Below the pieces are notes generated by a model that saw only the letters and a list, made by a program, of their open reading frames with translations, was not told the origin of the DNA and ran no database searches. Below, piece by piece: positions 21,641 through 45,642 of a stretch of 58,950 nucleotides of DNA (the first letter of the stretch is position 1; each line of letters starts with the position of its first letter). Source of the DNA: an uncultured Pseudomonadales bacterium (GTDB lineage Bacteria > Patescibacteriota > Microgenomatia > UBA1400); assembly GCA_964589815.1 (NCBI GenBank), contig CAZPUR010000004.1, positions 1-58,950 on the forward strand, given 5' to 3'. The position numbers were made by a program, and so were the translations under genes.

Positions 21641-21924
21641 CCAAAAGGAAAAAATTGTTTTATTTCATCCCCTTGTTTTTAATGGTTGTTTTAGGTGTGG
21701 CCCAAATATACTTTTCGACGCAATTAGCCACTAAAGGTAAAAAAATCACCACCTTAGAAAAAGAAACGCAAATTTTAGAGGAGGAAAACAAAAATTTAAA
21801 AAGCGAAATTGCCTCTTTTGGCGGCCTAAATAAACTTTTAAGCCTGGCGGCGGAAAAAGGTTTTACTAAAGACTTTCAGATTATTAACTTAAGTAGTAAA
21901 GTTCCTGTAGCCCTGAACCCATAA
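21535..21924 (+). CDS. ftsL: FtsL-like cell division protein (start uncertain, probably downstream)
   Basis: Single TM plus coiled coil, between rsmH and the PBP gene. Confidence 0.6.
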   Translation: MVGDFNQKTSCSPRGGNKRQSSLSQRQAESRGKNLTKRKKLFYFIPLFLMVVLGVAQIYFSTQLATKGKKITTLEKETQILEEENKNLKSEIASFGGLNKLLSLAAEKGFTKDFQIINLSSKVPVALNP

Positions 21925-21928
21925 TTTT

Positions 21929-22018
21929 ATCCCGCAGTCCCGACGTAACGTCGGGGTACGGGATGAAAACTATTACTTTTTAGGAACTGCAGATTTAAAA
22001 AATCTGCAGAGTTTTCAT
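21929..22018. repeat. Two-hairpin element, copy A
   Basis: atcccgca..tacgggat stem, then atgaaaact..ctgcagatt/aatctgcag..agttttcat; second copy at 37273. Confidence 0.75.
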
Positions 22019-23783
22019 GAAAAAGAAATTTACTAACTGGCGACCCCTAGTTTTAGTGGTCGTTTTTTTTATTCTTTTTTTGCTTATTCTGCTGCGTTTA
22101 TTTTATTGGCAGGTTTTAGCCAGCGAAAAACTGCTTCAACTGGCTAAAAATCAATACCATTCTCAAGAAGAAATCATGCCTAATCGGGGAGAAATATTAG
22201 CGACCGACGGCTTTCCCTTGGTGACTAACAAAAAGGCCTATTTACTTTACAGTGCTCTAGGCCAACTGGATAAGCCCAGCGACGAAGTGGCGGAAACCTT
22301 AGCGCCTTTATTAATTGAACCTGAGAATGTTGAAGCCAGTCTGTCAGCTGGAGAAAAAGAAAAATTAACTAAAAATTTGATTAAAGATAAAGAAGAAGAC
22401 TTAAAGACAAAGCTAAGTTTAGACCTTTCCTGGATTATTTTGGAGCATAAACTTTCTGAAGAAATTAAAGAAAAGATAAAGCAGTTGGAAATAACTGGTT
22501 TAGGTTTTGAAAACGAATCAACCAGATTTTATCCTGAAGCTTCAATGGCTGCTCATCTCCTGGGTTTTGTCGGTAAAAATGAGACCGGTTTGGACACGGG
22601 TTATTTTGGACTGGAAGGTTTTTATGATATGGAGCTTAGAGGCAGGCAGGGAGTTCTTATCCAAGAAAAAGACGCCGCCAACAGGCCGATCTTGGTCGGC
22701 TTTTTTTCCACCGAGGAAAAAAAGGACGGCCAAAATTTGGTTTTGCATTTAGACCGAACGGTTCAGTTTATCGTCGAACAAGAATTGGAAAAAGCAGTCA
22801 AAAGATATGGAGCCAAATCTGGCTCGGTCATTATTATGGATCCTAATACCGGTGGGATTATAGCCATGGCCAGCTGGCCTAAATTTGAACCGCAAAAATA
22901 TTTTAAATCGGATAAAACTCTTTTTAAAAATCCTCTTATTTCTGATACCTATGAACCGGGCTCCACTTTCAAAATTTTTGTCATGGCCGCCGCCTTAGAT
23001 AGTGAAGCGGTAGAAAAGGAAACCAAATGTGATGTTTGTGACCACGCCCTGAAAATTGATAAATATGAAATTAAAAATTGGAATGATAAATATCATCCTC
23101 AGTCGACCATGGATGAAATCATCCAGCATTCAGATAATATTGGGATGGTTTTTGTCAGCCGCAAACTGGGTTTAGATAATTTCTTAAAGTATATTAAAGA
23201 TTTTGGTTTTGGTCAGGAAACTAATATTGACCTTCAAGGAGAAGCGGCCAGTCCTTTAAGGCCTGATAATCAATGGAGTGAAGTTGATTTGGCCACGGCT
23301 GCTTTTGGGCAAGGAATCACGGTGACCGGCATCCAAATGGTTCAGGCCTGTAGTGTCATTGCCAACGGCGGCTGGTTAATAGAGCCTCAAGTGGTTAAAA
23401 AAGTCATTTCGGGCAAGGAAGAAATAGAAATGAAAGTAAAAAAAATCAGACAAGTAATTAAGCCTAAAACAGCCAGAATAGTTAAAGAAATGATGGTTCA
23501 AGCGGTGGACAAAGGAGAAGCCAGTTACCTGAAGAAAAAAATACCCGGATTTAAGATTGCCGGTAAAACCGGCACCGCCCAGATTCCGGTGGCCGGGCAC
23601 TATGACGAAGAAAAAACCATTGCTTCATTCATTGGTTTTGCTCCGGCGGATAAACCCCGATTGGTGATGCTGACCAGTCTGCGGGAGCCAGAATCGTCTC
23701 CTTGGGGTTCAGAAACAGCAGCCCCTTTATTTTTTAATATTGCCAAACAACTTTTCCCCTATTATGGCATTCAACCGGAGTAA
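22017..23783 (+). CDS. ftsI: Class B penicillin-binding protein (FtsI-like)
   Basis: EPGSTFK (SxxK), SDN (SxN), GKTGTAQ; N-terminal TM; dcw position. Confidence 0.88.
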   Translation: MKKKFTNWRPLVLVVVFFILFLLILLRLFYWQVLASEKLLQLAKNQYHSQEEIMPNRGEILATDGFPLVTNKKAYLLYSALGQLDKPSDEVAETLAPLLIEPENVEASLSAGEKEKLTKNLIKDKEEDLKTKLSLDLSWIILEHKLSEEIKEKIKQLEITGLGFENESTRFYPEASMAAHLLGFVGKNETGLDTGYFGLEGFYDMELRGRQGVLIQEKDAANRPILVGFFSTEEKKDGQNLVLHLDRTVQFIVEQELEKAVKRYGAKSGSVIIMDPNTGGIIAMASWPKFEPQKYFKSDKTLFKNPLISDTYEPGSTFKIFVMAAALDSEAVEKETKCDVCDHALKIDKYEIKNWNDKYHPQSTMDEIIQHSDNIGMVFVSRKLGLDNFLKYIKDFGFGQETNIDLQGEAASPLRPDNQWSEVDLATAAFGQGITVTGIQMVQACSVIANGGWLIEPQVVKKVISGKEEIEMKVKKIRQVIKPKTARIVKEMMVQAVDKGEASYLKKKIPGFKIAGKTGTAQIPVAGHYDEEKTIASFIGFAPADKPRLVMLTSLREPESSPWGSETAAPLFFNIAKQLFPYYGIQPE

Positions 23784-23799
23784 ATTGATATAATACTTA

Positions 23800-25035
23800 A
23801 TGTTTATGGCAAAGCTATTAAAAACAGTTAGGAACTGCTCCTTTATTTGTCGATTAAGAGGGTTAATCCCCGAAGTTTTAGTCAACTACATTTATCATTT
23901 CCCCCAAGCCTTGTTAGCCATTAGCTATTATGGTTATCCGGCCAAAGATTTAAAAGTGATTGGGGTAACCGGTACGGACGGCAAAACTACCACCGCCACT
24001 TTAATTTATGAGATTTTAAAAAAGGCCGGCTTGAAAACTGCCCTGATTTCCACGGTTTCGGCCAAAATCGGAAGCAAAGATTTACCGACTGGCCTTCATG
24101 TAACTTCACCCCATCCCTGGGAACTGCAAAGACTTTTAAAATTAATCAGAGACAAAGGATTTAAGTATCTGGTTTTAGAAACCACCTCTCATGGTCTGGA
24201 GCAATTCAGGCTTTTGGGAGCCAATTTTTACATTGGTTTAATTACTAACGTTACTCATGAGCATTTAGACTACCATAAGACTTTTAAAAACTATCTCAAA
24301 GCCAAAGCCAAACTTTTTAAAAAGACTAAATTCAGCGTTTTAAATCAAGATGATAGCTCTTTTGCTCCGCTCAAAAAAGTGGCGTCAGGTAAAATCATTA
24401 GTTATGGCCTAAAAAGCGGTGATTATCATCTCAAAAACTTTGCTTTTAAAACCAGACTTTTGGGAGAATACAATTTATACAACTGTTTGGCCGCCATTAG
24501 CGTCGCTAAAACCTTAGGCATCAAAAATGAGGTTATTCGTCAAGTAATCGCCGATTTTAAAGGGATGATTGGCCGCATGGAGGAGATAAAAACCAATAAA
24601 GGATTTAGGGTTTTTGTTGACTTTGCCCACACGCCCAATGGGCTTAAAAATGCCCTAAAAACCCTTAAAAGCCTAAAACCTGAGCATCTAATGGCTGTTT
24701 TTGGTGCCGCCGGATTAAGGGACCGAACGAAAAGACCTTTAATGGGGCAAGTTGCCTGTCAACTGGCTGATAAAGTGATTTTAACTGCCGAAGATCCGCG
24801 AACAGAAGCAGTTAATCAAATTATTAAGGCAATAGCTAGCGGTTGCAAGAGCCAGGATAAGATTATTAAAGAACCAGACAGGCAGAAGGCGATTAATTTA
24901 GCCCTTAAAATGGCCCAGAAAGGCGATATTGTTGGTATTTTTGGCAAGGGCCATGAACAATCTCTGTGTTTTGGGACCCAAGAATACCCCTGGTCAGACC
25001 AGGAGGCAGTTAAAAAAGCCCTGAAGAAAAAATAA
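23800..25035 (+). CDS. murE: UDP-MurNAc-dipeptide amino acid ligase MurE
   Basis: GVTGTDGKTTT, ETTSHGL, HEHLDYH, VDFAHTPN, GAAGLRD, EDPR, GKGHE. Confidence 0.92.
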   Translation: MFMAKLLKTVRNCSFICRLRGLIPEVLVNYIYHFPQALLAISYYGYPAKDLKVIGVTGTDGKTTTATLIYEILKKAGLKTALISTVSAKIGSKDLPTGLHVTSPHPWELQRLLKLIRDKGFKYLVLETTSHGLEQFRLLGANFYIGLITNVTHEHLDYHKTFKNYLKAKAKLFKKTKFSVLNQDDSSFAPLKKVASGKIISYGLKSGDYHLKNFAFKTRLLGEYNLYNCLAAISVAKTLGIKNEVIRQVIADFKGMIGRMEEIKTNKGFRVFVDFAHTPNGLKNALKTLKSLKPEHLMAVFGAAGLRDRTKRPLMGQVACQLADKVILTAEDPRTEAVNQIIKAIASGCKSQDKIIKEPDRQKAINLALKMAQKGDIVGIFGKGHEQSLCFGTQEYPWSDQEAVKKALKKK

Positions 25036-25036
25036 A

Positions 25037-25654
25037 ATGAATTTTCCCTTAATTGACCAATTTTTTAACCTTAAAGACTTCCGTCATCAAAGTCTTTTTA
25101 AGAAGATTAAATATCCCTGGGAGATTTTAAAAAGACTTGACCAATATGTCTCCGAGTTTTTAAAAGAAAAAAAGAAAAAAGACGTTTTTATTGGTCAAGG
25201 AGTCAAAATTGATGAGTCAGCCAGAATCAAAGGGCCGGTTCTAATTGGTAAAAATACGGTTATTGGTTTTGGAGCTCTACTAAGAGGGCCTCTTATTATT
25301 GGTGACAACTGCATCATTGGTAGGAGCGAGATTAAACATTCGATTCTTTTAAATCAGGTTTTCGCGGAGCACTTTAATTATATTGGCGACAGCATTATTG
25401 GTAACAAAGTTAATTTTGGGGCCGGAACAAAAGTGGCCAATTTAAGATTTGACTGGCAGAATATTAAGATTGACTATCAAGAGAAAAAGATTGACACCAG
25501 TTTACAAAAATTAGGGGCTATTATTGCTGATGGTTGCCAGCTGGGTTGTAACTCAGTTTTGAATCCAGGCACAATTTTAGGTAAAAAATGTTCTGTTTAC
25601 CCTTTAGTTTCGGTTAAAGCCGGAGTTTATAAAGATAATTCGATAATTAAATGA
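25037..25654 (+). CDS. Stand-alone LbH acetyltransferase (GlmU C-terminal-like)
   Basis: Hexapeptide repeats, HFNYIGDSIIG, NFGAGT, KLGAII. Confidence 0.75.
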   Translation: MNFPLIDQFFNLKDFRHQSLFKKIKYPWEILKRLDQYVSEFLKEKKKKDVFIGQGVKIDESARIKGPVLIGKNTVIGFGALLRGPLIIGDNCIIGRSEIKHSILLNQVFAEHFNYIGDSIIGNKVNFGAGTKVANLRFDWQNIKIDYQEKKIDTSLQKLGAIIADGCQLGCNSVLNPGTILGKKCSVYPLVSVKAGVYKDNSIIK

Positions 25655-25690
25655 GAGGAATGATAAAATAATAACTGCCCTGAAGGGAGA

Positions 25691-26440
25691 ATGATGAATT
25701 TCAAGAATATGGCCGCCATTGTTTTGGCGGCGGGTAAAGGCACCAGAATTAATGCCAAAGAGATCAATAAAGTGATGTATCCCTTGGCCGGGAAGCCGAT
25801 GCTTTGGTATACCATTAATCTTTTAAAAAAAGTGGGTTTCTCAAAGATTATTATTGTGGTAGGGTTTTTAAAAGAATCAATCATTAATTATTTTGGTAGG
25901 AAAGATTTCATCTACGCGGAACAAAGAAAAAGGCTGGGGACAGCTCATGCGGTCAAAACCGGCCTTAAAAAAATACCTTCAGGAATTAAAAATGTTTTAG
26001 TTCTCCATGCGGATGATTCAGCTTTTTATCCAGTAAAGGTGATTAGAAACATGATTAATCAACATCTAAGAAAGGGAAATGACTTAAGCTTTCTAACGGT
26101 GGAAATAAAAAATCCAAACATTGCCAGAGTGATTAGAGATAAAAAAGGAAAAGTTTTGGGGATAGTTGAACAGCAAAATCTCAAGCCTGGTCAGGAAAAA
26201 TTTAAAGAAATCAATTGTGGTTGTTATTGCTTTAAAATAGAATTTTTGAAAAAATTTCTGCCTCAAATTAAAAAGAACTCTCTAACTAAAGAATATTATT
26301 TGCCTTTATTAATTGATTTAGGTATCCAAAATAAGGCAAAGGTGAGGGCTTTTAAAATGAATAAATCCGATTACTGGCATGGAATTAATACTAGAGGAGA
26401 ATTGCAAAGAGCAGAAGGAGTAATGCGGAAAAATGTTTAA
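25691..26440 (+). CDS. Stand-alone nucleotidyltransferase (GlmU N-terminal-like)
   Basis: LAAGKGTR, QRKRLGTAHAV, EINCG, EYYL, GINTR. Confidence 0.82.
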   Translation: MMNFKNMAAIVLAAGKGTRINAKEINKVMYPLAGKPMLWYTINLLKKVGFSKIIIVVGFLKESIINYFGRKDFIYAEQRKRLGTAHAVKTGLKKIPSGIKNVLVLHADDSAFYPVKVIRNMINQHLRKGNDLSFLTVEIKNPNIARVIRDKKGKVLGIVEQQNLKPGQEKFKEINCGCYCFKIEFLKKFLPQIKKNSLTKEYYLPLLIDLGIQNKAKVRAFKMNKSDYWHGINTRGELQRAEGVMRKNV

Positions 26441-27197
26441 GAAGTACCTTAAGTTTAAGAATCTCAGTAAACAAAAAAAATTAGTTCATGGGATTTTTGA
26501 TAAAAATTTTGGCAATTTAAGTCTGAAATATGGGAGCAAGAAAGAAGTAGAAAAGAATAAAAAAAATGTAGCTAAAATTTTAAACATTAATGGACAAAAA
26601 ATCTTTTCTCTTAACCAAATTCATAGCAGTAAAGTTAAAATAATTAAAAAGGATAAAAATTTCTTAAAAGAAGAAAAAGCAGATGCTTTAGTTACCAATC
26701 AGAGGGACATATTTTTAATGATTAAAACCGCCGATTGTTTTCCGGTTTTGATGTTTGATCCCAGGCAAGAAGTAATGGCCGCAATTCACGTTGGTTGGCG
26801 CGGAGCGATCGAAAAAATCTTTTTAAACGTCTTACTGAAAATGATAACCAATTTTAATTGCCGGCCTCAAGACATATTAGTAGCCATCGGTCCGGGCATG
26901 GGCCCCTGTTGTTTTAAACATAGACATTTAATTCAGGAAAAACTACCTGACTGGCAAGAATTCATTAAGGTAGATAAGAATGATTGGAGAACCTTAAACC
27001 TTAGGAAATTTATTGAAGATAAATTAATTGAGGCGGGGATTAGGAAAAACAATATCGAAACAATGGATATCTGTAATAGTTGCAATGCGACCCCGAACAA
27101 TAAATATTCGGGGCAAAGGTTTTTTTCCCATTTACGTAGTTTAAATACGGGTGAGCCAGAAGGCCGTTTTGCCACCATTATTGGTTTAAATGATTGA
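26433..27197 (+). CDS. pgeF: Peptidoglycan editing factor PgeF/YfiH family
   Basis: QIHS, ADALVT, TADCFPV, HVGWRG, IGPG. Confidence 0.88.
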   Translation: MFKKYLKFKNLSKQKKLVHGIFDKNFGNLSLKYGSKKEVEKNKKNVAKILNINGQKIFSLNQIHSSKVKIIKKDKNFLKEEKADALVTNQRDIFLMIKTADCFPVLMFDPRQEVMAAIHVGWRGAIEKIFLNVLLKMITNFNCRPQDILVAIGPGMGPCCFKHRHLIQEKLPDWQEFIKVDKNDWRTLNLRKFIEDKLIEAGIRKNNIETMDICNSCNATPNNKYSGQRFFSHLRSLNTGEPEGRFATIIGLND

Positions 27198-28641
27198 TCT
27201 AAAGAAAATTAAAAAAATTCATTTTACCGGCATTAAAGGTGTGGGTTTAACCGCCTTGGCCTTGGTGGCTAAAGATATGGGTTTTAAGATTTCTGGTAGT
27301 GATGTGGCCGAATCTTTTGTGACTGATGAAGCATTGAAGAAAGCAGGCATTAAGACTCAAATTGGTTTTAATGAGAAAAGAATTAAGGATGCAGATTTGG
27401 TGATTTTTTCTGCCGGTCATGGTGGATCGGAGAATATTGAAGTTCAATCAGCTAGAAAACAGGCAATTCCGATTTTATCTCATGCTCAGGCTTTGGCTTT
27501 GCTGGTAAAGTCAAAAAAAGCCATTTGTGTGGCTGGGGTGGGAGGGAAAACCACGACTTCTTCGATGATTGCTACCGTTTTCCAAGTGGCTGGGGTTCAT
27601 CCCAGTTATGCCATTGGCGTGGGTGGGATTAGACCTTTAGGCCTACCGGCAAAATTTGACAAAAAAGGTAAATATTTTGTGGCCGAGGCGGATGAATATT
27701 TTTCTCCACCCCCAGACTCTAAACCTAAATTTTGGTATCAAAATCCTTTTGTAGCCGTAATTACCAATCTAGAATATGATCATCCTGATGTTTATAAAAA
27801 CCTGGAACATACTTTAAAAGTTTTTGCTAAATTTATTGAAAGGACGCCAAAAGAAGGTTTGGTTCTAGTTTGTATTGATAATCCCAATACAGAAAAGCTA
27901 ATTCAATTTTGGCCAAAGACCAATCGTCCTTTGGACGAAATTAAAGTACCAATTAGTACCTATGGTTTTTCCAGAAAAGCTGATTGGCAAATTACTTTAA
28001 TTGATAAAAGTGAAGAAAAAATCAGTTTTAACTTAAAGTATAAGAATAAAGTTTTCAAGAATATCGAGTTAAATATTCCAGGAGAGTTTAATGTTAGAAA
28101 TGCGGCGGCCGCTTTTGCTGTCGGCCGCTTTTGCGGCATTAGCCCCAGAAAAATCAGGGAAGGGTTAAAGGCCTTTAAGGGTACCCAAAGAAGATTTGAG
28201 CTTATTAGGGAAATCAAGGGGATTAAACTTTATGATGATTATGCTCATCATCCAGTCCAAATAAAAGCAACTCTAAAAGGAGCCAGAGACTGGTTTGGTA
28301 AGAAAAGAATTATCGTTGTTTTCCAACCCCACACTTATAGCCGCACTAAAGCCTTATTAAAAGAATTCAGTTTGGCTTTTAATGAGGTTGACTTAGTAAT
28401 TATTACTGATATTTATGCTTCGGCTCGAGAAAAAGATAATCCTACCATTTCAGGAAGGCTGTTAGCTAAAAAAATAAAAGAACATCAGGCCAATGTGGTT
28501 TACCAGGGTGGGGAGAAAGAAGTGGCCAGTTATTTAGGAAAAATAGCTAAAAAAGGAGATGTAATTTTTACTTTAGGAGCCGGAGATATATTTAAGTGGC
28601 ACAACTCAATTGCAAAAGCAATTGAGAGAAATCAGAAATAA
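27190..28641 (+). CDS. murC: UDP-N-acetylmuramate--L-alanine ligase
   Basis: HFTGIKGVGL, GVGGKTTT, EADEY, YDHPD, RRFE, DDYAHHP, FQPHTYSRT. Confidence 0.96.
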   Translation: MIDLKKIKKIHFTGIKGVGLTALALVAKDMGFKISGSDVAESFVTDEALKKAGIKTQIGFNEKRIKDADLVIFSAGHGGSENIEVQSARKQAIPILSHAQALALLVKSKKAICVAGVGGKTTTSSMIATVFQVAGVHPSYAIGVGGIRPLGLPAKFDKKGKYFVAEADEYFSPPPDSKPKFWYQNPFVAVITNLEYDHPDVYKNLEHTLKVFAKFIERTPKEGLVLVCIDNPNTEKLIQFWPKTNRPLDEIKVPISTYGFSRKADWQITLIDKSEEKISFNLKYKNKVFKNIELNIPGEFNVRNAAAAFAVGRFCGISPRKIREGLKAFKGTQRRFELIREIKGIKLYDDYAHHPVQIKATLKGARDWFGKKRIIVVFQPHTYSRTKALLKEFSLAFNEVDLVIITDIYASAREKDNPTISGRLLAKKIKEHQANVVYQGGEKEVASYLGKIAKKGDVIFTLGAGDIFKWHNSIAKAIERNQK

Positions 28642-28676
28642 GTTCATTAGGTTATTAAGTTATTAGCAATTAAGGG

Positions 28677-29534
28677 ATGAAAATATTAAAAAACAAAATT
28701 TTAGCTCCATATACGACTTTTAGCATTGGTGGGCCAGCTGATTATTTGGTTGAAGCAAAGACAAAAAAAGAAATTATCAAGGCGCTAATTTGGGCAAAAA
28801 AAAGAAAAATTCCCTGGTTTGTTTTAGGCAGTGGCAGTAATATATTGGTCAGCGATAAGGGACTTAGGGGGCTAGTGATAATGAATAAAAACTCCAAAAC
28901 TCCAAAACTCCAAAACTCCAAGATTATGGCTTCTTCAGGCGTGAGTTTGGCAAAATTAATAGACTTTGCTACTCAACATCATCTTGCTGGGTTGGAGTTT
29001 CTGGCGGGGGTTCCGGGGACAGTAGGAGGGGCGATTGTGGGCAATAGTGGACCCAAGAATGACTCTATGGCTCAAGCTGTAGAAAAGGTGATTGTTTTGG
29101 GAGAAGATGGCTTAATTTATGATTTAACCAAGGAAGAATGTCAGTTTAATTATCGTAGCAGTCGATTTAAAAAAACAAAAGAAATTATTTTAGAAGTAGT
29201 TTTTAAATTAAAACCTTCAAAACCAGAATTAATCAAGAAAAAAATTGAACGAGCTTTATCTTTAAGAAAAAGTCAGCCTCAGGGGAAAAGCGCGGGCAGT
29301 ATTTTTAAAAACCCGCCAGGAGAAAAGGCCGGCCATCTGATTGATAAAGCCGGGTTAAAAGGAAAGAAAATAGGCGGGGCGATGATTAGCAAAGAACATG
29401 CTAATTGGATTGTCAATTTAGGCCATGCCCAAGCTAAAGATGTGATAAAATTAATCGGTCTTTGCAAAAAGAAAGTTAAAGAGAAGTTTAACATTGAGTT
29501 GGAAGAAGAAATTAGGTTGATAGGGAATTTTTAA
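28677..29534 (+). CDS. murB: UDP-N-acetylenolpyruvoylglucosamine reductase
   Basis: TTFSIGG, GSGSN, GVPGTVGGA, YRSSRF, SAGSIFKNP, HANWIVN. Confidence 0.96.
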   Translation: MKILKNKILAPYTTFSIGGPADYLVEAKTKKEIIKALIWAKKRKIPWFVLGSGSNILVSDKGLRGLVIMNKNSKTPKLQNSKIMASSGVSLAKLIDFATQHHLAGLEFLAGVPGTVGGAIVGNSGPKNDSMAQAVEKVIVLGEDGLIYDLTKEECQFNYRSSRFKKTKEIILEVVFKLKPSKPELIKKKIERALSLRKSQPQGKSAGSIFKNPPGEKAGHLIDKAGLKGKKIGGAMISKEHANWIVNLGHAQAKDVIKLIGLCKKKVKEKFNIELEEEIRLIGNF

Positions 29535-29675
29535 AATTGACCTAATTAATTTAATTTCTAATTGACCTAAATAAGCACCAAGTACCAATTAAAATTTTAA
29601 ACTTTTTGAAAATTGGAATTTAGAATAATTGCGGTTTGTTTAGAATAATTAGGTTAATTAGAATAATTAGAAATT
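29535..29675. repeat. Intergenic periodic inverted-repeat element
   Basis: aattgacct units facing agaataatt units; aatttctaatt (29553) pairs with aattagaaatt (29665). Confidence 0.7.
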
Positions 29676-29682
29676 CAAAGAT

Positions 29683-30999
29683 ATGTCTAAATTCATTATC
29701 CAGGGCGGTCGACCTTTAAAAGGGGCGGTTAGGTTAGGCGGCGCCAAAAATGCCGGCTTCAAATTAATGATTGCCGCCGCCTTAGGCGAAACAGATTCGC
29801 GCATTTTGAATTTATCTTATATTAATGACGTAGAAATGACGGCTATGTCTTTAAAAAGACTGGGCGTTAAAGTCAAGCAGTGTGGCGAGAGAACTTTTTT
29901 TGTTGGTTCGGATGGAGTTAAAAGTAAAAAACTGCCTCAGTTTAGCGGGAAAAAAACTCGGGGCTCAACTTTATTTGCCGGCATGCTTTTGGCCAAAAAG
30001 GGCGAGGCGATTATTCCTCTACCAGGCGGTTGTGTTTTAGGAGCTCGACCTATCAATCGTCATCTTCAGGCTTTCGCCAGCTTGGGAGCAAAGATCAAAT
30101 ATCAAGATAAATTTATTTATATTAAAGCGAAAAAACTCAGAGGCGCTACTTTTAGATTTTCTAAAAAAACTCATACCGGAACCGAAGCCATGCTTTTGGC
30201 AGCGGTTAAAGCCCGGGGGACAACGGTGATTGAAAATGCCGGCCAAGAACCGGAAATAGATGATATGATTTTGTTTTTAAATAAAATGGGAGCTAAAGTT
30301 AAACGGATTCATCCAGAAAAAATCATTATCCAAGGAGTCAGACATTTGAAAGGAGCGATCCATAGGGTTATGCCTGATAGAAATGAGGCAGTTTCTTATG
30401 CCGTAGCTGCTTTGGCGACTAAAGGAGATGTTGTCTTGGAAAATGCTCGGCAAGAAGATCTGAAAGTTTTTTTGGAAAAATTAGATGGAGCCGGAGCCAA
30501 ATTTAAAATTTCCGAGTTTGGGATCAGATTTTGGTATCAAAAACAACTTAAGGCCACTAGTTTAGAAACCGCGCCGGCCCCTGGCTTTATGACAGATTGG
30601 CAGCCTCTTTGGACGGTTTTAATGACTCAAGCAAAAGGAACAAGTTATATTGTCGAAAGAGTTCACAATAATCGTTTTCAGTTTGCCCAGCAATTAAATC
30701 AAATGGGAGCTAAAATTACCTTTTATAATCCTCAGGTGAAAAACCTGCAAGAATATTATGAATTTGACGAACCAGAAAAAGATCCTAATTTTCATGCGGC
30801 CAAAGTAACTGGTCCTAGCTTGTTAAAGGGAAAAAACCTTCAAATAACTGATCTTCGGGCCGGTGCCACTTTAGCCATTGCTGCCTTGGTGGCCAGAGGC
30901 AAGTCGACTTTGACCAATATCGAACATATTGATCGTGGTTATGAACAATTAGATGAAAAACTGAAACAATTAGGAGCCAAGATTAAAAGAACCAGCTAG
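29683..30999 (+). CDS. murA: UDP-N-acetylglucosamine 1-carboxyvinyltransferase
   Basis: GAKNA, PGGCVLGARP, EPEIDD, PDRNEA, DLRAGA, IDRGYE. Confidence 0.96.
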   Translation: MSKFIIQGGRPLKGAVRLGGAKNAGFKLMIAAALGETDSRILNLSYINDVEMTAMSLKRLGVKVKQCGERTFFVGSDGVKSKKLPQFSGKKTRGSTLFAGMLLAKKGEAIIPLPGGCVLGARPINRHLQAFASLGAKIKYQDKFIYIKAKKLRGATFRFSKKTHTGTEAMLLAAVKARGTTVIENAGQEPEIDDMILFLNKMGAKVKRIHPEKIIIQGVRHLKGAIHRVMPDRNEAVSYAVAALATKGDVVLENARQEDLKVFLEKLDGAGAKFKISEFGIRFWYQKQLKATSLETAPAPGFMTDWQPLWTVLMTQAKGTSYIVERVHNNRFQFAQQLNQMGAKITFYNPQVKNLQEYYEFDEPEKDPNFHAAKVTGPSLLKGKNLQITDLRAGATLAIAALVARGKSTLTNIEHIDRGYEQLDEKLKQLGAKIKRTS

Positions 31000-31733
31000 A
31001 GCATTCGCCAGAGATGGTTAAAAATGAGCTTCATAGTTTGACTGATGCTTTCTTCCCGAATAACTACCGCATAAGGCAACTCATCTTTAGTTAAAGAGAT
31101 TAGGGATAATTTATTAGCATAAATGATAATATAGCTGGAACCAGTATCATTACGAGAACTTAACCATTTTCTTTGGGCCAAAGCCGCTTCTTCGCCACCT
31201 TTACCCAGAGCAATAACTTTAACCCTGATTTTGTGTTTAATTCTTTGTTTAGTGTAGGCTGGGAAAAAGCGGTAAAGGTATTTTCTTAAAAGCCTGGCAG
31301 AAAAAACAAAATATTCTTTAGGCTTAGTTTTTTTCATAATGGCCAATACATCTTTAAGCACTTTTTCAATTCCTTCATCGCCTTCATAATACTGAACCAC
31401 AGGTTTTTCCGGGATAAAGCTTTGATCTTTTAATTGAGGAATTAACTCGTTTTTTAAAAATTTTTCAGTTTGGTTTAAAAATTGGTGTTTTTGCTGGAGG
31501 AGAGAATTAAGTTTCTCTGCTGGCTCAGCTAAGTAATGTTTTCTTTTTCCCTTGAGCTGAAAACTAACCAAACCTTTATTTTTCAACTGCCTAAGGATTT
31601 CGTGAGTCGTACCCCGATTAATCTGAGTTTTTTCTGCCACTTCCCTGATAGAAGTAGCCCCTAATTGAAGCAGCGTTTTATAAACCAAATATTCTTTTTT
31701 ATTTAAGCCTAAAGCCTGCCAAAAGTTTTTCAT
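30996..31733 (-). CDS. TrmB-family transcriptional regulator
   Basis: N-terminal wHTH (LGLNKKEYLVYKTLL..INRGTTHEIL), YYEGDEG, C-terminal IYANKLSLI. Confidence 0.82.
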   Translation of the reverse strand: MKNFWQALGLNKKEYLVYKTLLQLGATSIREVAEKTQINRGTTHEILRQLKNKGLVSFQLKGKRKHYLAEPAEKLNSLLQQKHQFLNQTEKFLKNELIPQLKDQSFIPEKPVVQYYEGDEGIEKVLKDVLAIMKKTKPKEYFVFSARLLRKYLYRFFPAYTKQRIKHKIRVKVIALGKGGEEAALAQRKWLSSRNDTGSSYIIIYANKLSLISLTKDELPYAVVIREESISQTMKLIFNHLWRML

Positions 31734-31872
31734 AAATAATGATTTTAGATGAGTTAATTATAGGGTAGTATTTAATAATTGTCAAAAAATTGTTGACAAA
31801 AGATATTGACATAAGAAAAATATATCCATAAAATTATTGACATTTGTTGAAATTTGAAGAGGCGATATAAAA

Positions 31873-33642
31873 ATGTGCGGTATTGTTGCCTACATCGGTC
31901 CAAAAAAAACAGCAGCCCAGATTGTTTTTCAAGGTTTGAAAAAACTGGAATATCGTGGTTATGATTCTTGGGGGGTGGCAGTTAAACCTTTTAAGGCCAA
32001 TCAACTTAGGATTGAAAAACGTATCGGCAAGATTGGTCAAGCGAAACTAAGACTGCCTCAAGGGAACCTGGCGATTGGTCATACCCGCTGGGCCACCCAC
32101 GGTGGGGTTACTAATACCAACGCTCATCCTCATCTTGATTGTCAGAAAAAATTGGCCGTGATTCATAACGGAATTGTGGAGAATTACCAAGCTTTAAGGC
32201 AGGGTTTGAAAAATAGAGGCCACCTTTTTACTTCCGAAACAGACACCGAAGTAGTCGCTCATTTGATTGAAGAAAAATTAAAGAAAGAGTCTGTTGAAAA
32301 AGCGGTTTTCTCCTCTTTTAAAAACTTAGTTGGTTCTAATGCCATTGCCATTCTGGATTTAACCTCAGAGAAGATTATTGCCTGTCGTGACGGTTCACCC
32401 TTGGTCGTCGGCGTAGGCAAAGATGAATATTTTTTAGCCTCAGATGTAACTCCCTTTTTACCCTACACGAAAAAGGCCTTGTTTTTAAATGACGGTGAGG
32501 CGGTAGTTTTAAGTAAGAAAGGGGTTAAGCTTTATGATTTTAAGACTGGCAGAGAGAAAAAATATAGACTTAAAATTATTGATTGGCAAATAGAAGATGC
32601 CCAAAAAGCAGGTTACCCCCATTTTCTCATCAAGGAAATTATGGAACAGAAAAAAACCATTCCTCAAACGGCTTTTTTAAACGAAGCAGTGATTAAGGAC
32701 TTAGCTTTAGAAATTAAAAAGAAAAGGAAAGTTTTCTTAACTGCCTGCGGCACGGCCGCTTATTGTGCCTTAGCGGCGGAATATTTTTTTGCCAAAGAAG
32801 GCATTAATGTTGCCAGCTATGGTGCTTACGAGTTTTTACCTTTTGTGGATTTTTGTGACCAAAATAGTTTTTTAATTGCCATTTCTCAGAGTGGAGAGAC
32901 AGCAGACACTTTAATTGCCGCTAAAAAAGCTAAAGCAAAAGGGGCTAAAATTGTGGTGCTAGTCAATGCGGTCGGTTCGACTTTAGAGAGAATGGCAGAT
33001 TATGTTTTGTCTGTTGGCGCCGGTCCAGAGATTGCCGTTGTTTCTACCAAAGCTTTTACTTCTCAGCTGACCACTTTATATCTTTTATCTCGGGCAATCA
33101 CGGGTAAATATTTGTCAGCCAAAAAGCAAATTGCCAACCTTAAATCAAGATTAACCAGATGGCTAAATAAAAATTTACAGCAAAAAATTATAAATCTGGC
33201 TAAAAAACTTAAAGACCATCAGGATATTTATTTGATTGGTAAACATTTAAATTATCCTGGCGTTTTGGAAATAGCCTTAAAAATTAAAGAGACTTCTTAC
33301 CTTCATTCAGAAGCTTTTGCTTCAGGCGAGCTTAAACATGGGGTGATTAGTTTAATTCAAAAAGGGACACCCTGTATTGTTTTGGCCAACTTAGAAGGAG
33401 AAACCAGAAGAGAAGTGCTTTCTTCAGCCACAGAACTTAAGTCTAGGGGCGCAAAAATTATTGGTATTTCTCCCTTAAACGCGCCAGAATTTGATGAATA
33501 TATCAAAACTCCTGACCTAGGTGACCTAACTATTTTAGGCAATGTAATCGTCGGTCAACTATTGGGTTATTATTTAGCCATTGGTTGTGGTTGTGACCCA
33601 GATAAACCAAGAAATCTGGCTAAAAGTGTCACGGTAAAATGA
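31873..33642 (+). CDS. glmS: Glutamine--fructose-6-phosphate aminotransferase
   Basis: MCGI, EYRGYDS, GHTRWATHG, SQSGETADT, KETSY, PRNLAKSVTV. Confidence 0.97.
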   Translation: MCGIVAYIGPKKTAAQIVFQGLKKLEYRGYDSWGVAVKPFKANQLRIEKRIGKIGQAKLRLPQGNLAIGHTRWATHGGVTNTNAHPHLDCQKKLAVIHNGIVENYQALRQGLKNRGHLFTSETDTEVVAHLIEEKLKKESVEKAVFSSFKNLVGSNAIAILDLTSEKIIACRDGSPLVVGVGKDEYFLASDVTPFLPYTKKALFLNDGEAVVLSKKGVKLYDFKTGREKKYRLKIIDWQIEDAQKAGYPHFLIKEIMEQKKTIPQTAFLNEAVIKDLALEIKKKRKVFLTACGTAAYCALAAEYFFAKEGINVASYGAYEFLPFVDFCDQNSFLIAISQSGETADTLIAAKKAKAKGAKIVVLVNAVGSTLERMADYVLSVGAGPEIAVVSTKAFTSQLTTLYLLSRAITGKYLSAKKQIANLKSRLTRWLNKNLQQKIINLAKKLKDHQDIYLIGKHLNYPGVLEIALKIKETSYLHSEAFASGELKHGVISLIQKGTPCIVLANLEGETRREVLSSATELKSRGAKIIGISPLNAPEFDEYIKTPDLGDLTILGNVIVGQLLGYYLAIGCGCDPDKPRNLAKSVTVK

Positions 33643-33670
33643 TTCCGCTTAGCGGGATAAAATTAATTTT

Positions 33671-34657
33671 ATGAGAAAGAAAAAAGATAAGATTGTGGTC
33701 ATTGGCGGTGGCACCGGCAGTTTTGTAGTTCTTTCCGGTTTAAGAAATTATCCGGTTGATTTAACGGCCATTGTCACCGTGGCCGATAGCGGCGGTTCCA
33801 CCGGTAGACTGCGGACAGAATTTGGCTTTTTGCCGGTAGGAGATATGCGTCAGTGTTTGGCCGCTTTAGCCTCAGAGAGCGGTGAGAATTATATCCAAAA
33901 ATTACTTTTATACCGGTTTGCCAAATGTAAAGGACTTAAGGGTCATAACCTGGGTAATCTTATTCTTACCGCTTTAACAGACTTGAGCGGTTCTGAAGCT
34001 AAAGCCCTAGAAATAGCTGCTCGAATTTTTCGTTTACACGGCACAATTTTACCCATTACCAAAACCAATATTGATTTAGTCGCTACTTATGAAGATGGTA
34101 AGACAGTGATAGGTGAGCATGAGATTGATGAGCCTAAACATCAAGGAGGGAAAAGGATTGTTAAACTCACCACTAAACCACGAGCCAAGATTTATCCACC
34201 AGCTCAAAAAGCAATTGAGCAAGCAGGCCTAGTCGTTTTAGGACCAGGTGATCTTTATACCAGTATTTTGCCAAACTTGGTCATTGAAGGGATTAAGAAG
34301 GCTTTTAACCGCTCAAAAGCAAAAATAGTCTATGTAGTTAATTTAATGACTCGCTATAGCCAAACTCATAATTTTACCGCTCAAGACCATCTTAATGAAA
34401 TAGAGAGGTATTTAGATCAAAAAGTAGACTTTGTTTTAATCAATAATCACAGGATACCCAATAATATTCTAAAACTTTATCAAAAAGAAAAAGGGATTCC
34501 GGTCAAAGATGACTTAGTTACCCAAGCTCATTGCAAAGTGATCAGAAAAGATTTGCTAGCCCCAACAGTAATCATCAAACCCAAGGGAGATTTATTAAAG
34601 CGAAGCTATCTACGTCATAACTCGGCTAAATTAGCTCAAGCTCTAATTCAGCTTTAA
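33671..34657 (+). CDS. yvcK: YvcK/GlmR (CofD-like) family protein
   Basis: GGGTG, VADSGGSTGRLR, GDMRQC, GHNLGNL, GPGDLYTSI. Confidence 0.9.
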   Translation: MRKKKDKIVVIGGGTGSFVVLSGLRNYPVDLTAIVTVADSGGSTGRLRTEFGFLPVGDMRQCLAALASESGENYIQKLLLYRFAKCKGLKGHNLGNLILTALTDLSGSEAKALEIAARIFRLHGTILPITKTNIDLVATYEDGKTVIGEHEIDEPKHQGGKRIVKLTTKPRAKIYPPAQKAIEQAGLVVLGPGDLYTSILPNLVIEGIKKAFNRSKAKIVYVVNLMTRYSQTHNFTAQDHLNEIERYLDQKVDFVLINNHRIPNNILKLYQKEKGIPVKDDLVTQAHCKVIRKDLLAPTVIIKPKGDLLKRSYLRHNSAKLAQALIQL

Positions 34658-34707
34658 GCCTAGTATAATTTCGCTACTATAGGACTAGAAGTACAATTAT
34701 AAGAAGA

Positions 34708-34735
34708 TTGACTTCTGTCTATTTTAGGATATAAT
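34708..34735 (+). promoter_or_regulatory. Sigma70-type promoter
   Basis: ttgact-N16-tataat upstream of ORF 34774. Confidence 0.65.
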
Positions 34736-34773
34736 GCTTGTTTGCTATAGGCATTATATTTTTTTAAACAAAT

Positions 34774-35043
34774 ATGGCTGCAGAAGCGTCAGATCAACAA
34801 TTACGAAGAGCAATAGAATCTCTTTCTTCTGAGGAAGCTCGTGTAGTAATGGGAGTTTTGAAGGAAACCACGCGATTTCTCCAGGGGGGGCCTGAACCAA
34901 ATTATGATCTAGTTCCGGGCCTGGACAGTCTCACTCCAGAGGGTGAAACGAGGGTGGCTAAGGTCATTAACGGAGTCAGCGAAGGTATTCAGGTTAGCAT
35001 GGCTTTACATCAAATCAACCTTCCCAAAACTTGGCAAGCCTAA
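34774..35043 (+). CDS. Hypothetical protein
   Basis: 89-aa ORF with its own promoter; no family recognised. Confidence 0.55.
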   Translation: MAAEASDQQLRRAIESLSSEEARVVMGVLKETTRFLQGGPEPNYDLVPGLDSLTPEGETRVAKVINGVSEGIQVSMALHQINLPKTWQA

Positions 35044-35114
35044 TTTCACAAGCTCTGTTTAAAACTTAATTTAACTCTTGTCAAATTTTTTTAACTTGCC
35101 TAAAATGAAAATAT

Positions 35115-35828
35115 ATGGATATGCCGATTATTATTCTTCATGGTTGGGACAGCAAGATTAAGAGATGGAGGAATTTCCAAGAGCAAATGGAGAAAAAAGG
35201 TTTTTTGACTTTTCTGCCTTCTTTACCAGGTTTTGGTAAAAGCCAATTAAAAGAAGTCTGGAGTCTTGATGATTATGTCAGCTGGCTGGAAAAGTATATC
35301 GCTATTAATCAATTCAAAAAATTTTATCTTTTGGGACATTCTTTCGGCGGTCAGGTGGCGATTAAATTCAGCTCTTTACGGCCCAAAGGCTTAGAAAAGC
35401 TGATTTTAGTTAACAGCGCCGGCATGAGGAAAAAATTAAGCTTAAAAAAATTGCTTTTTTGGGTTTTGGCTAAAACAGGAAAAATATTTTTTTATATTCC
35501 TCCTTTTTTGTTTTTTAGAAAACCGGCCCAATGGTTGCTTTATAAATTAGTGAGAGAAAGAGATTATTATCAGGCCTCGCAAATAATGAAAAAGACTTTA
35601 AAGAAAGTTTTGCAGCAAGATGTCAGTAAGAGTTTAAAAAAGATAAAAGCGCCGACTTTAATTGTTTGGGGGGAAAATGATAAAAAGACGCCTTTAAGCG
35701 ACGGTTTATTAATCAACAGCAAAATAAGAAAATCTAAATTAGTAGTTATTAAAGGAACCGGTCATGGTCTGCCTTTTGAAAAAACCGATTTACTAGTAGC
35801 CCAAATAGAAAGTTTTATTTTCGAATGA
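35115..35828 (+). CDS. Alpha/beta hydrolase
   Basis: LHGW, GHSFGG nucleophile elbow, WGENDKKTP, GH. Confidence 0.9.
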   Translation: MDMPIIILHGWDSKIKRWRNFQEQMEKKGFLTFLPSLPGFGKSQLKEVWSLDDYVSWLEKYIAINQFKKFYLLGHSFGGQVAIKFSSLRPKGLEKLILVNSAGMRKKLSLKKLLFWVLAKTGKIFFYIPPFLFFRKPAQWLLYKLVRERDYYQASQIMKKTLKKVLQQDVSKSLKKIKAPTLIVWGENDKKTPLSDGLLINSKIRKSKLVVIKGTGHGLPFEKTDLLVAQIESFIFE

Positions 35829-37270
35829 AATATTTAAATTTACTTTTACCACTGTTTTTTTTCTTTTTTATCTACTTGGGTATCCAGATTGTAAAAATTA
35901 ATTTATTTTTTATTTATCTGGTTCAGTTGAAAGAGTATCGTTGGGATAGGATTAAGGCCCATTTGAAAACTTTAACTGGGAGAAGACAGTTAATTGGTTA
36001 CTTTAATTTATTAAAGTGGCGGAAGTTTTATTCTCCTAAATTTACCTTAAGGGTAATTTTAATTTTAATTTTTACTTTTATAGCTCAATACAATTTTTTC
36101 TTTTTCGGCCTACGCTTCCTTTTCCGTTCTCTTGAAGATATTTCTAGCCTCATTCCTTTGTTGGTCTTATTAGTTTTGTTTTTGATAAACTTGATTACCC
36201 CTTTAGTTGTTTTTTTTGCCGCCGCCATTTCTGTTTTACTTACTGCTCCCATAAAAAAATTAACCATCTCTTTAGCCAAAGTCAAGATGAAGAGACGCCC
36301 TCATTTATTGGTTATTGGTATTACCGGCAGTTATGGTAAAACCGCGGTTAAAGAAATTCTTAGTTTTATTTTGAGTAATTTTTATCAAGTTTTGAAAACG
36401 CCATTGAATTGCAATACTCAGCTGGGAGTGGCTAAGTGGATTCTAAAGAAGCTGAAAAGAAAAGATGAAATTTTCATTGTAGAGATGGGAGCTTATAAAA
36501 AAGGAGAGATAAAGAAGATGGCCAAGATGGTTAAACCAAAAATTGGGATCATTACCGCGGTTAACGAACAACATTTAGCTCTTTTTGGTTCCATTACCAA
36601 AACTCAGTGGGCCAAATATGAATTAATTAAATCTTTACCCGAAGACGGTTTGGCCATCTTCAACGCTAACAATAAATACACCAAATATTTATATCAGGTT
36701 TGCAAAAAGCCTAAAAAATTATATGGTCAAAGAGGCAGCCGATTGCAAACTAAAATATTGGGTGATTGGCACAGAGATAATATCCAGGCAGCTTTGGCAG
36801 TTTGTGATTATTTGAAAATTCCCCGAAAAAAAGTTTACCGTCAAGTTAAAAAATTAAAAGAGTTTCCCCTGGGAATCCAAATTAAGAAAGGGAAAAGAGG
36901 AGCAAAAATTATCGATGATGCTTACAGCGCTAATCCGACTGGTTTTTTGGCGGCCTTAGAACTGCTCAGAAAGACTCCGGGGAAACAAAAAATTCTAGTG
37001 GCTCAAGGCATTATTGAGCTTGGCAACATGAGTCAAAAGATTCACCGGCAGATTGGTCAGAAAGCGGGAGAATTCTGTGACAAAGTTTTTCTGATTCAGC
37101 CTGATTTTTACCAAGCCATCATTGAGGGGGCCAATCGGGAAAAAACCTTTGTTGATGTCGAGGAAGATGGGGCTTTGTTATTGGCTAAAATTAAAGGCTT
37201 ATTAAATAAAAATACCGTGGTTCTTCTTGAGGGCGTACCTCCTTATTTAGGGAAAAAATTGACTGCCTGA
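35825..37270 (+). CDS. murF: MurF with N-terminal TM extension
   Basis: GITGSYGKTAVK, VEMGAY, QHLALFG, IDDAYSANP, ELG. Confidence 0.88.
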   Translation: MKYLNLLLPLFFFFFIYLGIQIVKINLFFIYLVQLKEYRWDRIKAHLKTLTGRRQLIGYFNLLKWRKFYSPKFTLRVILILIFTFIAQYNFFFFGLRFLFRSLEDISSLIPLLVLLVLFLINLITPLVVFFAAAISVLLTAPIKKLTISLAKVKMKRRPHLLVIGITGSYGKTAVKEILSFILSNFYQVLKTPLNCNTQLGVAKWILKKLKRKDEIFIVEMGAYKKGEIKKMAKMVKPKIGIITAVNEQHLALFGSITKTQWAKYELIKSLPEDGLAIFNANNKYTKYLYQVCKKPKKLYGQRGSRLQTKILGDWHRDNIQAALAVCDYLKIPRKKVYRQVKKLKEFPLGIQIKKGKRGAKIIDDAYSANPTGFLAALELLRKTPGKQKILVAQGIIELGNMSQKIHRQIGQKAGEFCDKVFLIQPDFYQAIIEGANREKTFVDVEEDGALLLAKIKGLLNKNTVVLLEGVPPYLGKKLTA

Positions 37271-37272
37271 TT

Positions 37273-37400
37273 ATACCGCACCAAAGAAAACTCCGTCAGA
37301 ATGATGAATTTAATCTAAAAGTATGATAAAGTTTTCTTGGTACGGTATGAAAACTATTACTTTTGAAAAACTGCAGATTAGAAATCTGCAGAGTTTTCAT
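37273..37400. repeat. Two-hairpin element, copy B
   Basis: ataccgcaccaaagaaaact/agttttcttggtacggtat stem, then atgaaaact..agttttcat as in copy A. Confidence 0.75.
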
Positions 37401-37412
37401 AATTAGAAAGAA

Positions 37413-38429
37413 ATGATCAGAACAGATTTTATAAAAGATAAAGAACTCTGGGAAAGATTTGTCTTAAATTTTCCTTCTGCCTCTTTTTTACAATCCTGGA
37501 ATTGGGGAGAAGTACATTCTGCCTTAGGAAAGAAAATTTTCCGCCTGGGATTTTTTGAAAAACAAAAGTTAACCGGCGCCTGCCTTCTGGTGAAACAGGA
37601 AGCCAAACGAGGTTTTTACTTAGAGTGTCCAGGCGGGCCCTTAATCGACTGGACTAAACCCATTTATCAAGAGGAATTTTTAAATCAAATTAAAAAAATT
37701 GGTCAAGAGGAGAATTGTGTTTTTGTTCGAGTAAGGCCGCAAATTTTAGAGACTTTAGCCAATAGGCTTTTATTTAAAAAACTGGGTTTTCTTCCTGCGC
37801 CCATGCATCTTCACGCTGAATTGACGCTTCAGCTTGATCTTCAGAAAAATGAAGAACAACTTTTGAGAGGGATGCGGAAAAATACCCGTTATTTAGTTAA
37901 AAAAGCCATTAAAGGAAATATAATAGTTGAACAAAGTACTAATTTAGAAGACATTGAAATGCTATACAAACTTCAACTAGAGACGGTTAAAAGAAGACAC
38001 TTTACTCCTTTTGCCAAAAAATTTTTTTTGGGAGAATTTAAAACTTTTTTAAAAGACGACCAGATTCGACTTTTTAAAGTTATTTATAAAAATAAAGTTC
38101 TAGCCGCGGCTCTAATTATTTTCTATGGTGGCGAGGCTATCTATCATTATTCTGGTTCCTCCTTGCGTTTTAGGAAAATTCCTGCTTCTTATGCTCTGCA
38201 ATGGGCGGCGATCAAAGAAGCAAAAAGGCGTGGTTGCCAAAGGTATAATTTTTGGGGAGTGGCTCCGCTTGATAAGCCTAAGCATCGTTTTGCCGGTGTC
38301 AGCTTGTTTAAAAGGGGCTTTGGCGGAGAAGAAGTCAGCTATTTACATGCCCATGATTTACCTTTAAACTTAAAATACTGGGTGGTTTATGTTTTTGAAA
38401 CTTTAAGAAAAATCTGCCGCGGTCTTTGA
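37413..38429 (+). CDS. FemABX-family lipid II aminoacyltransferase
   Basis: FLQSWNWG, GGP, MRKNTRY, YHYSGS, YNFWG, FKRGFGG. Confidence 0.88.
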   Translation: MIRTDFIKDKELWERFVLNFPSASFLQSWNWGEVHSALGKKIFRLGFFEKQKLTGACLLVKQEAKRGFYLECPGGPLIDWTKPIYQEEFLNQIKKIGQEENCVFVRVRPQILETLANRLLFKKLGFLPAPMHLHAELTLQLDLQKNEEQLLRGMRKNTRYLVKKAIKGNIIVEQSTNLEDIEMLYKLQLETVKRRHFTPFAKKFFLGEFKTFLKDDQIRLFKVIYKNKVLAAALIIFYGGEAIYHYSGSSLRFRKIPASYALQWAAIKEAKRRGCQRYNFWGVAPLDKPKHRFAGVSLFKRGFGGEEVSYLHAHDLPLNLKYWVVYVFETLRKICRGL

Positions 38430-45634: not shown

Positions 45635-45642
45635 GGAGTTTT

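Follow-up and report, generated by a model that had tools for sequence, protein, structure and literature searches.

Two structured spacers before cell-wall genes of a Beckwithbacteria-like bacterium are probable copies of a small dispersed palindromic repeat

Contig CAZPUR010000004.1 (assembly GCA_964589815.1) belongs to an uncultured member of the Patescibacteriota (Microgenomatia, UBA1400), and its positions 1 to 58,950, forward strand, form the stretch of DNA analysed here (the window). Two of its intergenic spacers are filled by copies of the same two-hairpin element. Copy A lies between an ftsL-like gene and an ftsI-type gene for a class B penicillin-binding protein (PBP), and copy B between a murF-like Mur ligase gene and the gene for a FemABX-family aminoacyl transferase (femX). 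The ftsL-like protein has no match in Pfam. From its stop codon TAA (21922-21924) to the PBP ATG (22017) there are 92 nucleotides (nt), filled by copy A (21927-22018), which starts with TTATCCCG and ends with AGTTTTCAT; copy B (37271-37400) starts with TTATACCG and has the same end. An earlier note on this DNA, made from the letters alone, had described both copies before the PBP and FemABX genes and proposed either a cis-regulatory RNA of cell-wall genes or a miniature inverted-repeat transposable element (MITE). The description proved accurate. The regulatory proposal did not survive comparison with relatives and with further copies of the element.

The two copies have in common a module of the form ATGAAAACT-(15-nt one-sided loop)-CTGCAGATT-loop-AATCTGCAG-AGTTTTCAT, with 88% identity over 64 columns, in agreement with the near-identical second hairpins described earlier. 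For the 32-nt 3' pattern of this module 0.00 occurrences are expected from shuffled sequence, and the 18-mer ATGAAAACTATTACTTTT occurs exactly twice. Both copies fold far better than their shuffles (z = -7.1 for A and -6.1 for B), none of 200 shuffles being as good. The closing stem of hairpin 1 carries a C-G pair in A and an A-T pair in B, a true two-sided change, as the earlier note had observed. It had also stated that the hairpin 1 interiors differ; this stands, with the correction that A encloses a 17-nt GC palindrome and B a second-level stem (CCAAAGAAAACT/AGTTTTCTTGG) that re-uses the hairpin 2 words GAAAACT/AGTTTTC. Hairpin 1 of copy A begins 5 nt past the ftsL stop, and the final two bases of its hairpin 2 are the AT of the PBP start codon (22017-22019); the stem of copy B ends 12 nt upstream of the femX ATG (37413). 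Both of these end positions had been read correctly, as had the presence in each copy of a short open reading frame (ORF) starting MKTITF.

Evidence for the nature of the element comes from sites at which it is missing. Relatives were found through their PBP and FemX proteins, and MurC puts the window near Candidatus Beckwithbacteria, with the best genome representatives at ~50% identity. At the ftsL/ftsI junction of three relatives (L085, L086 and L088; PBP 65-70% identity) the ftsL stop overlaps the ftsI start as ATGA (...CCNNNATGAAAAA), and the window has AACCCA, then 95 nt, then ATGAAAAAG. These ancestral junctions of the relatives contain no Shine-Dalgarno-like sequence. The Mur ligase/femX junction is likewise an ATGA overlap in L090 and L091 (FemX 71-72% identity) and a 21-nt spacer in L089 (FemX protein 87% identity), against which a blastn alignment of the window ends at 37270 and restarts at 37399. 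The element is absent from all six relatives across the two junctions, each of which has either the overlap or the 21-nt spacer.

A third, independent empty site accompanies a copy in another organism (L001), where the spacer measures 107 nt and six codons read from the element have been added to the methionyl-tRNA synthetase (MetRS). In the relatives L096 and L097 the metG-tatD spacers are 25 and 11 nt, with MetRS ending ...PLFPRLS; the P0254 MetRS locus, whose source run is other than X1 (see below), was used as an empty-site control. The case therefore totals three independent pairs of filled and empty sites in two organisms. Comparison of the aligned junctions shows that both window copies are clean insertions, acquired once this lineage had separated from the nearest relatives sampled. 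Parsimony makes the overlapping junction without the element the ancestral one, and the family is specific to this lineage.

Table 1. Positions of genes, short open reading frames, hairpins and inserts at copies A and B, and forms of the copies found at other loci
Feature	Position	Strand	Description
ftsL-like small membrane protein gene	21535-21924	+	Upstream of copy A; C-terminus ...NLSSKVPVALNP aligns with the gene preceding ftsI in L085 and L086
ftsI-type class B PBP gene	22017-23783	+	Downstream of copy A; Pfam PBP_dimer and Transpeptidase; start MKKK..W kept in relatives
Mur ligase gene (murF-like)	35825-37270	+	Upstream of copy B; stop 37268-37270; Pfam Mur_ligase_M and Mur_ligase_C
FemABX-family aminoacyl transferase gene (femX)	37413-38429	+	Downstream of copy B; Pfam FemAB; start MIRTDFIKDK kept in relatives
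Copy A hairpin 1	21929-21964	+	Closing stem ATCCCG/CGGGAT enclosing GC palindrome CCCGACGTAACGTCGGG (17 nt, 21939-21955); from folding
Copy A hairpin 2	21963-22018	+	Outer stem ATGAAAACT/AGTTTTCAT, inner stem CTGCAGATTT/AAATCTGCAG (21987-22009); model R1 81 bits
Copy B hairpin 1	37273-37348	+	Closing stem ATACCG/CGGTAT, second-level stem CCAAAGAAAACT/AGTTTTCTTGG, apex partly deleted
Copy B hairpin 2	37347-37400	+	Outer stem ATGAAAACT/AGTTTTCAT, inner stem CTGCAGATT/AATCTGCAG (37371-37391); model R1 87 bits
Insert at copy A	21922-22016	+	95 nt between ftsL and ftsI relative to close relatives; brings the TAA stop of the ftsL-like gene
Insert at copy B	37271-37398	+	128 nt where L089 has 3 nt (AGT)
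Short ORF MKTITF*	21963-21983	+	Copy A; read from the sequence
Short ORF MKTITFEKLQIRNLQSFHN*	37347-37406	+	Copy B; UAG 6 nt upstream of the femX AUG
L001 copy			Diverged first hairpin, second hairpin the same; between metG and tatD
L002 copy			Long "B-type" form; in the spacer that separates two divergent GT2 glycosyltransferase genes, 1 or 22 nt upstream of one of them
L003/L004 copy			Long "B-type" form; following a RecF-like gene, with 14 nt to the gene for a membrane protein without Pfam match

The earlier note had proposed a search for further copies and a tabulation of the genes downstream of them. When public metagenome contigs were scanned for the exact pattern, four loci (L001-L004) emerged with one copy each, L003 and L004 being the same sequence from two samples (99.98% identity). 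The genes downstream of these extra loci are a GT2 glycosyltransferase gene, a gene for a membrane protein without Pfam match and tatD. Beyond the element, no DNA is common to L001-L004 or to any of them and the window. The same scan gave no match in a genome contig collection (the window's genome is not among its entries), and viral contig, phage and plasmid collections gave none. A covariance model of hairpin 2 (R1), an analysis also suggested earlier, recovers every known copy at 72-91 bits and finds nothing else in the window, in 27 dcw loci of the candidate phyla radiation (CPR) or in 84 kb of the closest relatives' loci.

The window is present at 100% identity in four salt-marsh runs (X1-X4), as are L002 and L003/L004. 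Summed contig depth in these runs is ~10 outside the element and 70-120 over it, an increase of about 7-12-fold. Contigs terminate inside the element, with at least nine distinct flanks among the unmatched ends. The hairpin 1 palindrome of copy A, CCCGACGTAACGTCGGG, occurs once in the window and recurs in other family copies at these loose ends, placed either within hairpin 1 or within the loop of hairpin 2. Variants seen there include more "A-type" copies with the palindrome CCCGACG...CGTCGGG in hairpin 1, one copy in which this palindrome is nested at a second position, the hairpin 2 loop, and others in which AGCTTTCAT or CCGCAG replaces the usual words. Across the four runs the depths of L002 and L003/L004 (~11, 2.5, 8 and 4.5) track those of the window (10, 3.7, 7.9 and 5), and the Joint Genome Institute (JGI) sample behind L003 also encodes a ParB identical to the window's. 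Given this depth tracking and the exact ParB, L002 and L003/L004 are probably other loci of the window's genome, for which we infer about ten copies. The L001 locus, from a subsurface metagenome, has a MetRS that groups with those of Microgenomates and carries the element as a single copy, with flat depth.

The family consensus consists of a hairpin 1 closing stem TATMCCG...CGGKAT around a variable interior, which tolerates deletions and the addition of other small palindromes, followed by hairpin 2 of the form ATGAAAACT...CTGCAG..CTGCAG AGTTTTCAT. The stems hold while the loops drift freely, even in the L001 copy (61-71% overall identity). In hairpin 2, 15 of the 18 pairs are invariant and one is compensatory, a pattern that 204 of 500 shuffles match with only five full sequences available. 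An 18-nt GC palindrome in the hairpin 1 apex is found in L003 only. The change in the hairpin 1 closing stem is independent of the interior type, L002 combining a B-type interior with the C-G pair. Since palindromic DNA repeats also keep their stems, and given this independence, the two-sided change is no argument for an RNA. In four of the five copies the minus strand folds at least as well as the plus strand. A structure specific to RNA was accordingly dropped as a candidate, both strands folding about equally with no asymmetry.

In the B-type copies the stem words run in the order GAAAACT..AGTTTTC..GAAAACT..AGTTTTC (in copy B at 37286-37292, 37330-37336, 37349-37355 and 37392-37398). The middle AGTTTTC/GAAAACT pair could form an alternative hairpin with a 12-nt loop, replacing hairpins 1 and 2, and the L001 copy has the same four-word arrangement with GCGAAAAC/GTTTTCGC. 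We also considered whether the hairpin 1 interior is an inverted hairpin 2, as in a REPIN-like doublet. This was dropped, the local alignment being marginal (of 500 shuffles, 7 were as good in the case of L002, and 47-48 in the cases of B and L003). The PstI-type word CTGCAG occurs in the window at 21987, 22004, 34778, 37371, 37386 and 43546, four of these six sites lying inside copies A and B; composition predicts ~6.6 sites overall, and only two stand outside the elements.

The short ORF differs between copies in length, with 6 codons in A and 11 in L001, where it closes early, and 19-21 in B, L002 and L003, where it runs on through hairpin 2. A conserved leader peptide was rejected on account of these lengths, and the short ORF, cut short in A and L001, is therefore not a defining feature of the family. 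The stop codon in L003 lies 2 nt upstream of the next start; the ORF in L002 overlaps one candidate start or ends ~13 nt before the other. The L003/L004 peptide, MKTITFKKLQIINLQSFHS, is similar to the N-terminal part of RecF/SMC-type ATPases. Upstream of this copy, the RecF-like gene (L004 5370-6425, minus strand) has a GTG start followed by FLKILNLQNFRSF, and the DNA of the two starts is alike at ~17 of 22 nt, which may be chance in AT-rich DNA.

Comparison with Rfam gave no family match, with nothing at gathering thresholds or at E values up to 10 over either copy. The sole Rfam match in the window is a tRNA (56642-56713), and the best sub-threshold score is 33 bits (threshold 50). A scan for outward-facing promoters found no plus-strand sigma-70-like site in A or B, and a search for transcripts found no RNA run that contains the region. 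In both copies the inner hairpin (9-10 bp, four G-C pairs) with the adjoining AGUUUUCAU is picked up by a simple terminator scan, as are equally many sites in shuffled sequence, and the U run of this terminator-like part can also pair with the upstream AUGAAAACU.

Taken together, we consider it probable that A and B are dispersed small (~90-160 nt) non-coding palindromic repeats of a Beckwithbacteria-like (Microgenomates/CPR) bacterium, and not a regulator of cell-wall genes. The modular build, nested palindromes, nearly invariant stems and folding of both strands fit the class of REP/BOX/ERIC-like repeats. The earlier suggestion of a MITE is correct in substance, in that the element behaves as a mobile repeat with many dispersed copies and contig breaks. 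With neither terminal inverted repeats nor a target-site duplication nor a common target, it does not qualify as a classical MITE, as a Correia element or as an obvious IS200/IS605 derivative. Both window copies went into junctions where the stop of one gene had overlapped or nearly touched the start of the next, and spread probably occurs at the DNA level. A putative trans-acting enzyme may recognise the hairpin stem sequences, most likely as single-stranded DNA (ssDNA), in the manner of REP/RAYT, IS200/IS605-derived elements and Ssn-type nucleases; the invariance of the stems would then reflect recognition by a protein acting on DNA hairpins. Copies would persist only where gene expression stays intact, between a stop and a start codon. 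The copies are located inside operons or, for L002, in a 5' leader. The element would simply be transcribed with the operon, its hairpins forming in the mRNA.

Several observations weigh against this interpretation. The ends, TTATMCCG... and ...AGTTTTCATAA, have only TTAT/ATAA in common and form no terminal inverted repeats; the left flanks (CCTGA, CATAATT, AACTC, AGTTG and GATTTG) have no common target. No target-site duplication was found at the insertion sites: at B, AGT has given way to 128 nt and neither flank is duplicated, and at A the one recurring word is ATGAAAA, which is present within the element and again where the gene begins. Pfam finds no transposase in the window, only small GIY-YIG nucleases with different flanking hairpins, and no RAYT (Y1 HUH transposase) or TnpA gene among the window ORFs. 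No joints, and with them no presence/absence polymorphism of the insertions, were seen in the salt-marsh population, and copy numbers are based on assembler contigs rather than raw reads. Both window insertions broke ATGA-type coupling before probably essential genes, which means that the element must at least permit downstream translation. Furthermore, all five copies with full context are co-oriented with the downstream gene and end between 2 nt inside its start codon and 14 nt upstream (possibly 22 nt in L002). The earlier note had reasoned that many copies beside unrelated genes in random orientation would favour a plain mobile repeat; the neighbouring genes are indeed unrelated, but the orientation is the same in five of five. 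Such co-orientation (about 1 in 16, two-sided, hence weak) and start-proximity may result from a role played by the RNA, but equally from a filtering of insertions.

The best-surviving alternative, which we nonetheless regard as unlikely, is a portable intercistronic expression module that arrived by insertion and now helps the gene behind it to be translated. Its two neighbouring hairpins might place the stop of the upstream gene near the start of the downstream one; or the internal AUG (MKTITF...) might open a relay ORF, the translation of which melts the outer stem hiding the start codon and ends a few nt before the next gene. The orientation and end positions of all five copies fit such a module, as does the placement of copy A, with hairpin 1 just past the ftsL stop and hairpin 2 ending in the PBP AUG. 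The ancestral ATGA overlap without Shine-Dalgarno-like sequence implies that translation relied on coupling, which an insertion had to keep; the short ORF stops at 6 nt (B) or 2 nt (L003) before the AUG, with the overlap or ~13 nt in L002. However, the short ORF ends at 6 codons in A and at 11 in L001, and apparently closes also in a loose-end copy on a 5543-nt contig. One further copy has no ATG within 30 nt downstream, the plus strand shows no folding bias, five observations are weak statistics, and gene-dense, mostly co-oriented operons offer few other places for insertion. With ancestral junctions that lack a Shine-Dalgarno sequence and depend on ATGA, downstream translation would in any case have to tolerate or use a folded spacer of 90-140 nt. 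It is rather improbable that a mobile cassette lands in the stop-start junctions of coupled, Shine-Dalgarno-less CPR operons and takes over their coupling; if it did, essential genes such as ftsI would need an inserted repeat for their translation.

Protein-binding DNA sites are a very improbable explanation. The invariant words ATGAAAACT/AGTTTTCAT and the doubled CTGCAG would then be operators or restriction-modification sites carried by the repeat, as might be suggested by stems that are invariant beside variable loops, by the concentration of CTGCAG in the two elements, and by palindromes identical on both strands. Against this, no candidate binding protein is linked to the copies and the neighbouring genes have nothing in common; a transposase or nuclease recognising the stems predicts the same conservation, and the depletion of CTGCAG outside the elements (two observed) is weak. 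A cis-regulatory RNA (riboswitch, attenuator or leader) controlling peptidoglycan genes is the least credible reading and already largely refuted: although the strong fold, one two-sided change each in the closing stem of hairpin 1 and the inner stem of hairpin 2, the alternative pairings permitted by the repeated GAAAACU/AGUUUUC words and the resemblance of the inner hairpin plus AGUUUUCAU to a weak intrinsic terminator speak for it, the element is absent from the orthologous junctions of all close relatives fetched and from 27 CPR dcw loci, its other copies precede unrelated genes (GT2 glycosyltransferase, membrane protein without Pfam match, tatD), it is a multi-copy repeat at which assemblies break, its stems are conserved in sequence and show no clear covariation, and it has no match in Rfam.

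The window contains further repeats and structured spacers. A small GIY-YIG gene (16657-16947, minus strand) lies between a DUF4012 gene and recO, which are adjacent in L086 (3840/3844), so this cassette is an insertion. Direct repeats of 46 nt with 98% identity (56336-56381 and 56793-56838) bracket a second small GIY-YIG gene, which corresponds to the 83-aa PF01541 gene in L094/L095, together with the tRNA at 56642-56713. The 148-nt AT-rich spacer from murB to an EPSP-synthase-family (murA-like) gene (29535-29682) forms a long imperfect hairpin of ATTAGAATAATTAG-type words and represents another foldback family at a dcw junction. A 116-nt spacer (34658-34773) with two strong hairpins, including a 16-bp stem (GGATATAATGCTTGTT...), precedes a small ORF without Pfam match (34774-35043). 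A perfect 71-nt direct repeat (57867-57937 and 58053-58123, 186 nt apart) lies inside a zinc-finger (zf_Tbcl_2) ORF (57849-58352). Arrays of AT-rich 7-14-nt words (AAAGTGAAAA, ATTTGTAATTTG and similar) occupy the spacers 2926-2990, 52737-52790, 8332-8425, 45513-45644 and 49964-50135, and some of them resemble one another, either directly or as inverted versions. At L001, positions 3642-3685 within tatD rise in depth from 51 to ~370 in its own run and recur in a run from marine sediment, which suggests that a further very small high-copy repeat lies within this coding region.

With these results a false lead is removed, there being no new riboswitch-like control of peptidoglycan genes at this locus. 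A well-documented case is also added to an emerging picture, in which tiny, gene-dense CPR genomes can host small hairpin repeats exactly between coupled, probably essential genes without lethal effect. This raises the testable question of how ribosomes reach starts behind 90-140 nt of folded RNA without a Shine-Dalgarno sequence at these junctions. A practical effect is that metagenome assemblies of this organism break at the repeats.

Among known systems, the Correia elements (CREE/NEMIS) of Neisseria are similarly small, inserted beside genes and co-transcribed, and their hairpins can affect mRNA processing and expression. They have 26-bp terminal inverted repeats and a TA duplication, whereas the present family has neither. 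The IS200/IS605-derived PATE resemble it in that hairpins stand near both ends, inverted termini and target duplications are lacking, and strand or orientation is biased; the left flanks found here, in contrast, show no target tetra- or pentanucleotide that is conserved, and no TnpA was found in the window. Ssn GIY-YIG nucleases recognise a hairpin stem sequence on ssDNA, and their NTS/SRM repeats are dispersed and oriented; Ssn cuts its sites and is not known to spread repeats (PMC11893778). The window's genome has an Ssn-like feature in its small GIY-YIG genes flanked by hairpins (16657-16947), but those hairpins (GTCATCCTGAAC...) are unrelated to hairpins 1 and 2, and R1 has no match near that gene.

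A further parallel is found in BOX of Streptococcus pneumoniae and ERIC/IRU of enterobacteria, which are modular, structured repeats of 100-170 nt in transcribed intergenic regions near gene starts. As in the present family, their modules may be variable or deleted, and they have no coding capacity and no known transposase. The present repeats have no known sequence similarity to them, and differ in being inserted in former ATGA overlaps with one end fused to the start codon. The REP/BIME and REPIN repeats of Enterobacteria and Pseudomonas, with their RAYT, have no counterpart to the larger two-part unit (a variable hairpin plus a conserved 56-nt hairpin); the present family has no GTAG-type head, a low copy number (~10) and no RAYT gene seen in the window. 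They agree with it in being short, non-coding, palindromic and present in many copies between genes of operons with which they are co-transcribed, and in combining a conserved stem sequence and composite or nested arrangements with the absence of terminal inverted repeats and target duplications. A literature search found no account of such repeats in Patescibacteria. The family is new, and its kind is known, namely that of the REP/BOX/ERIC-like small palindromic repeats.

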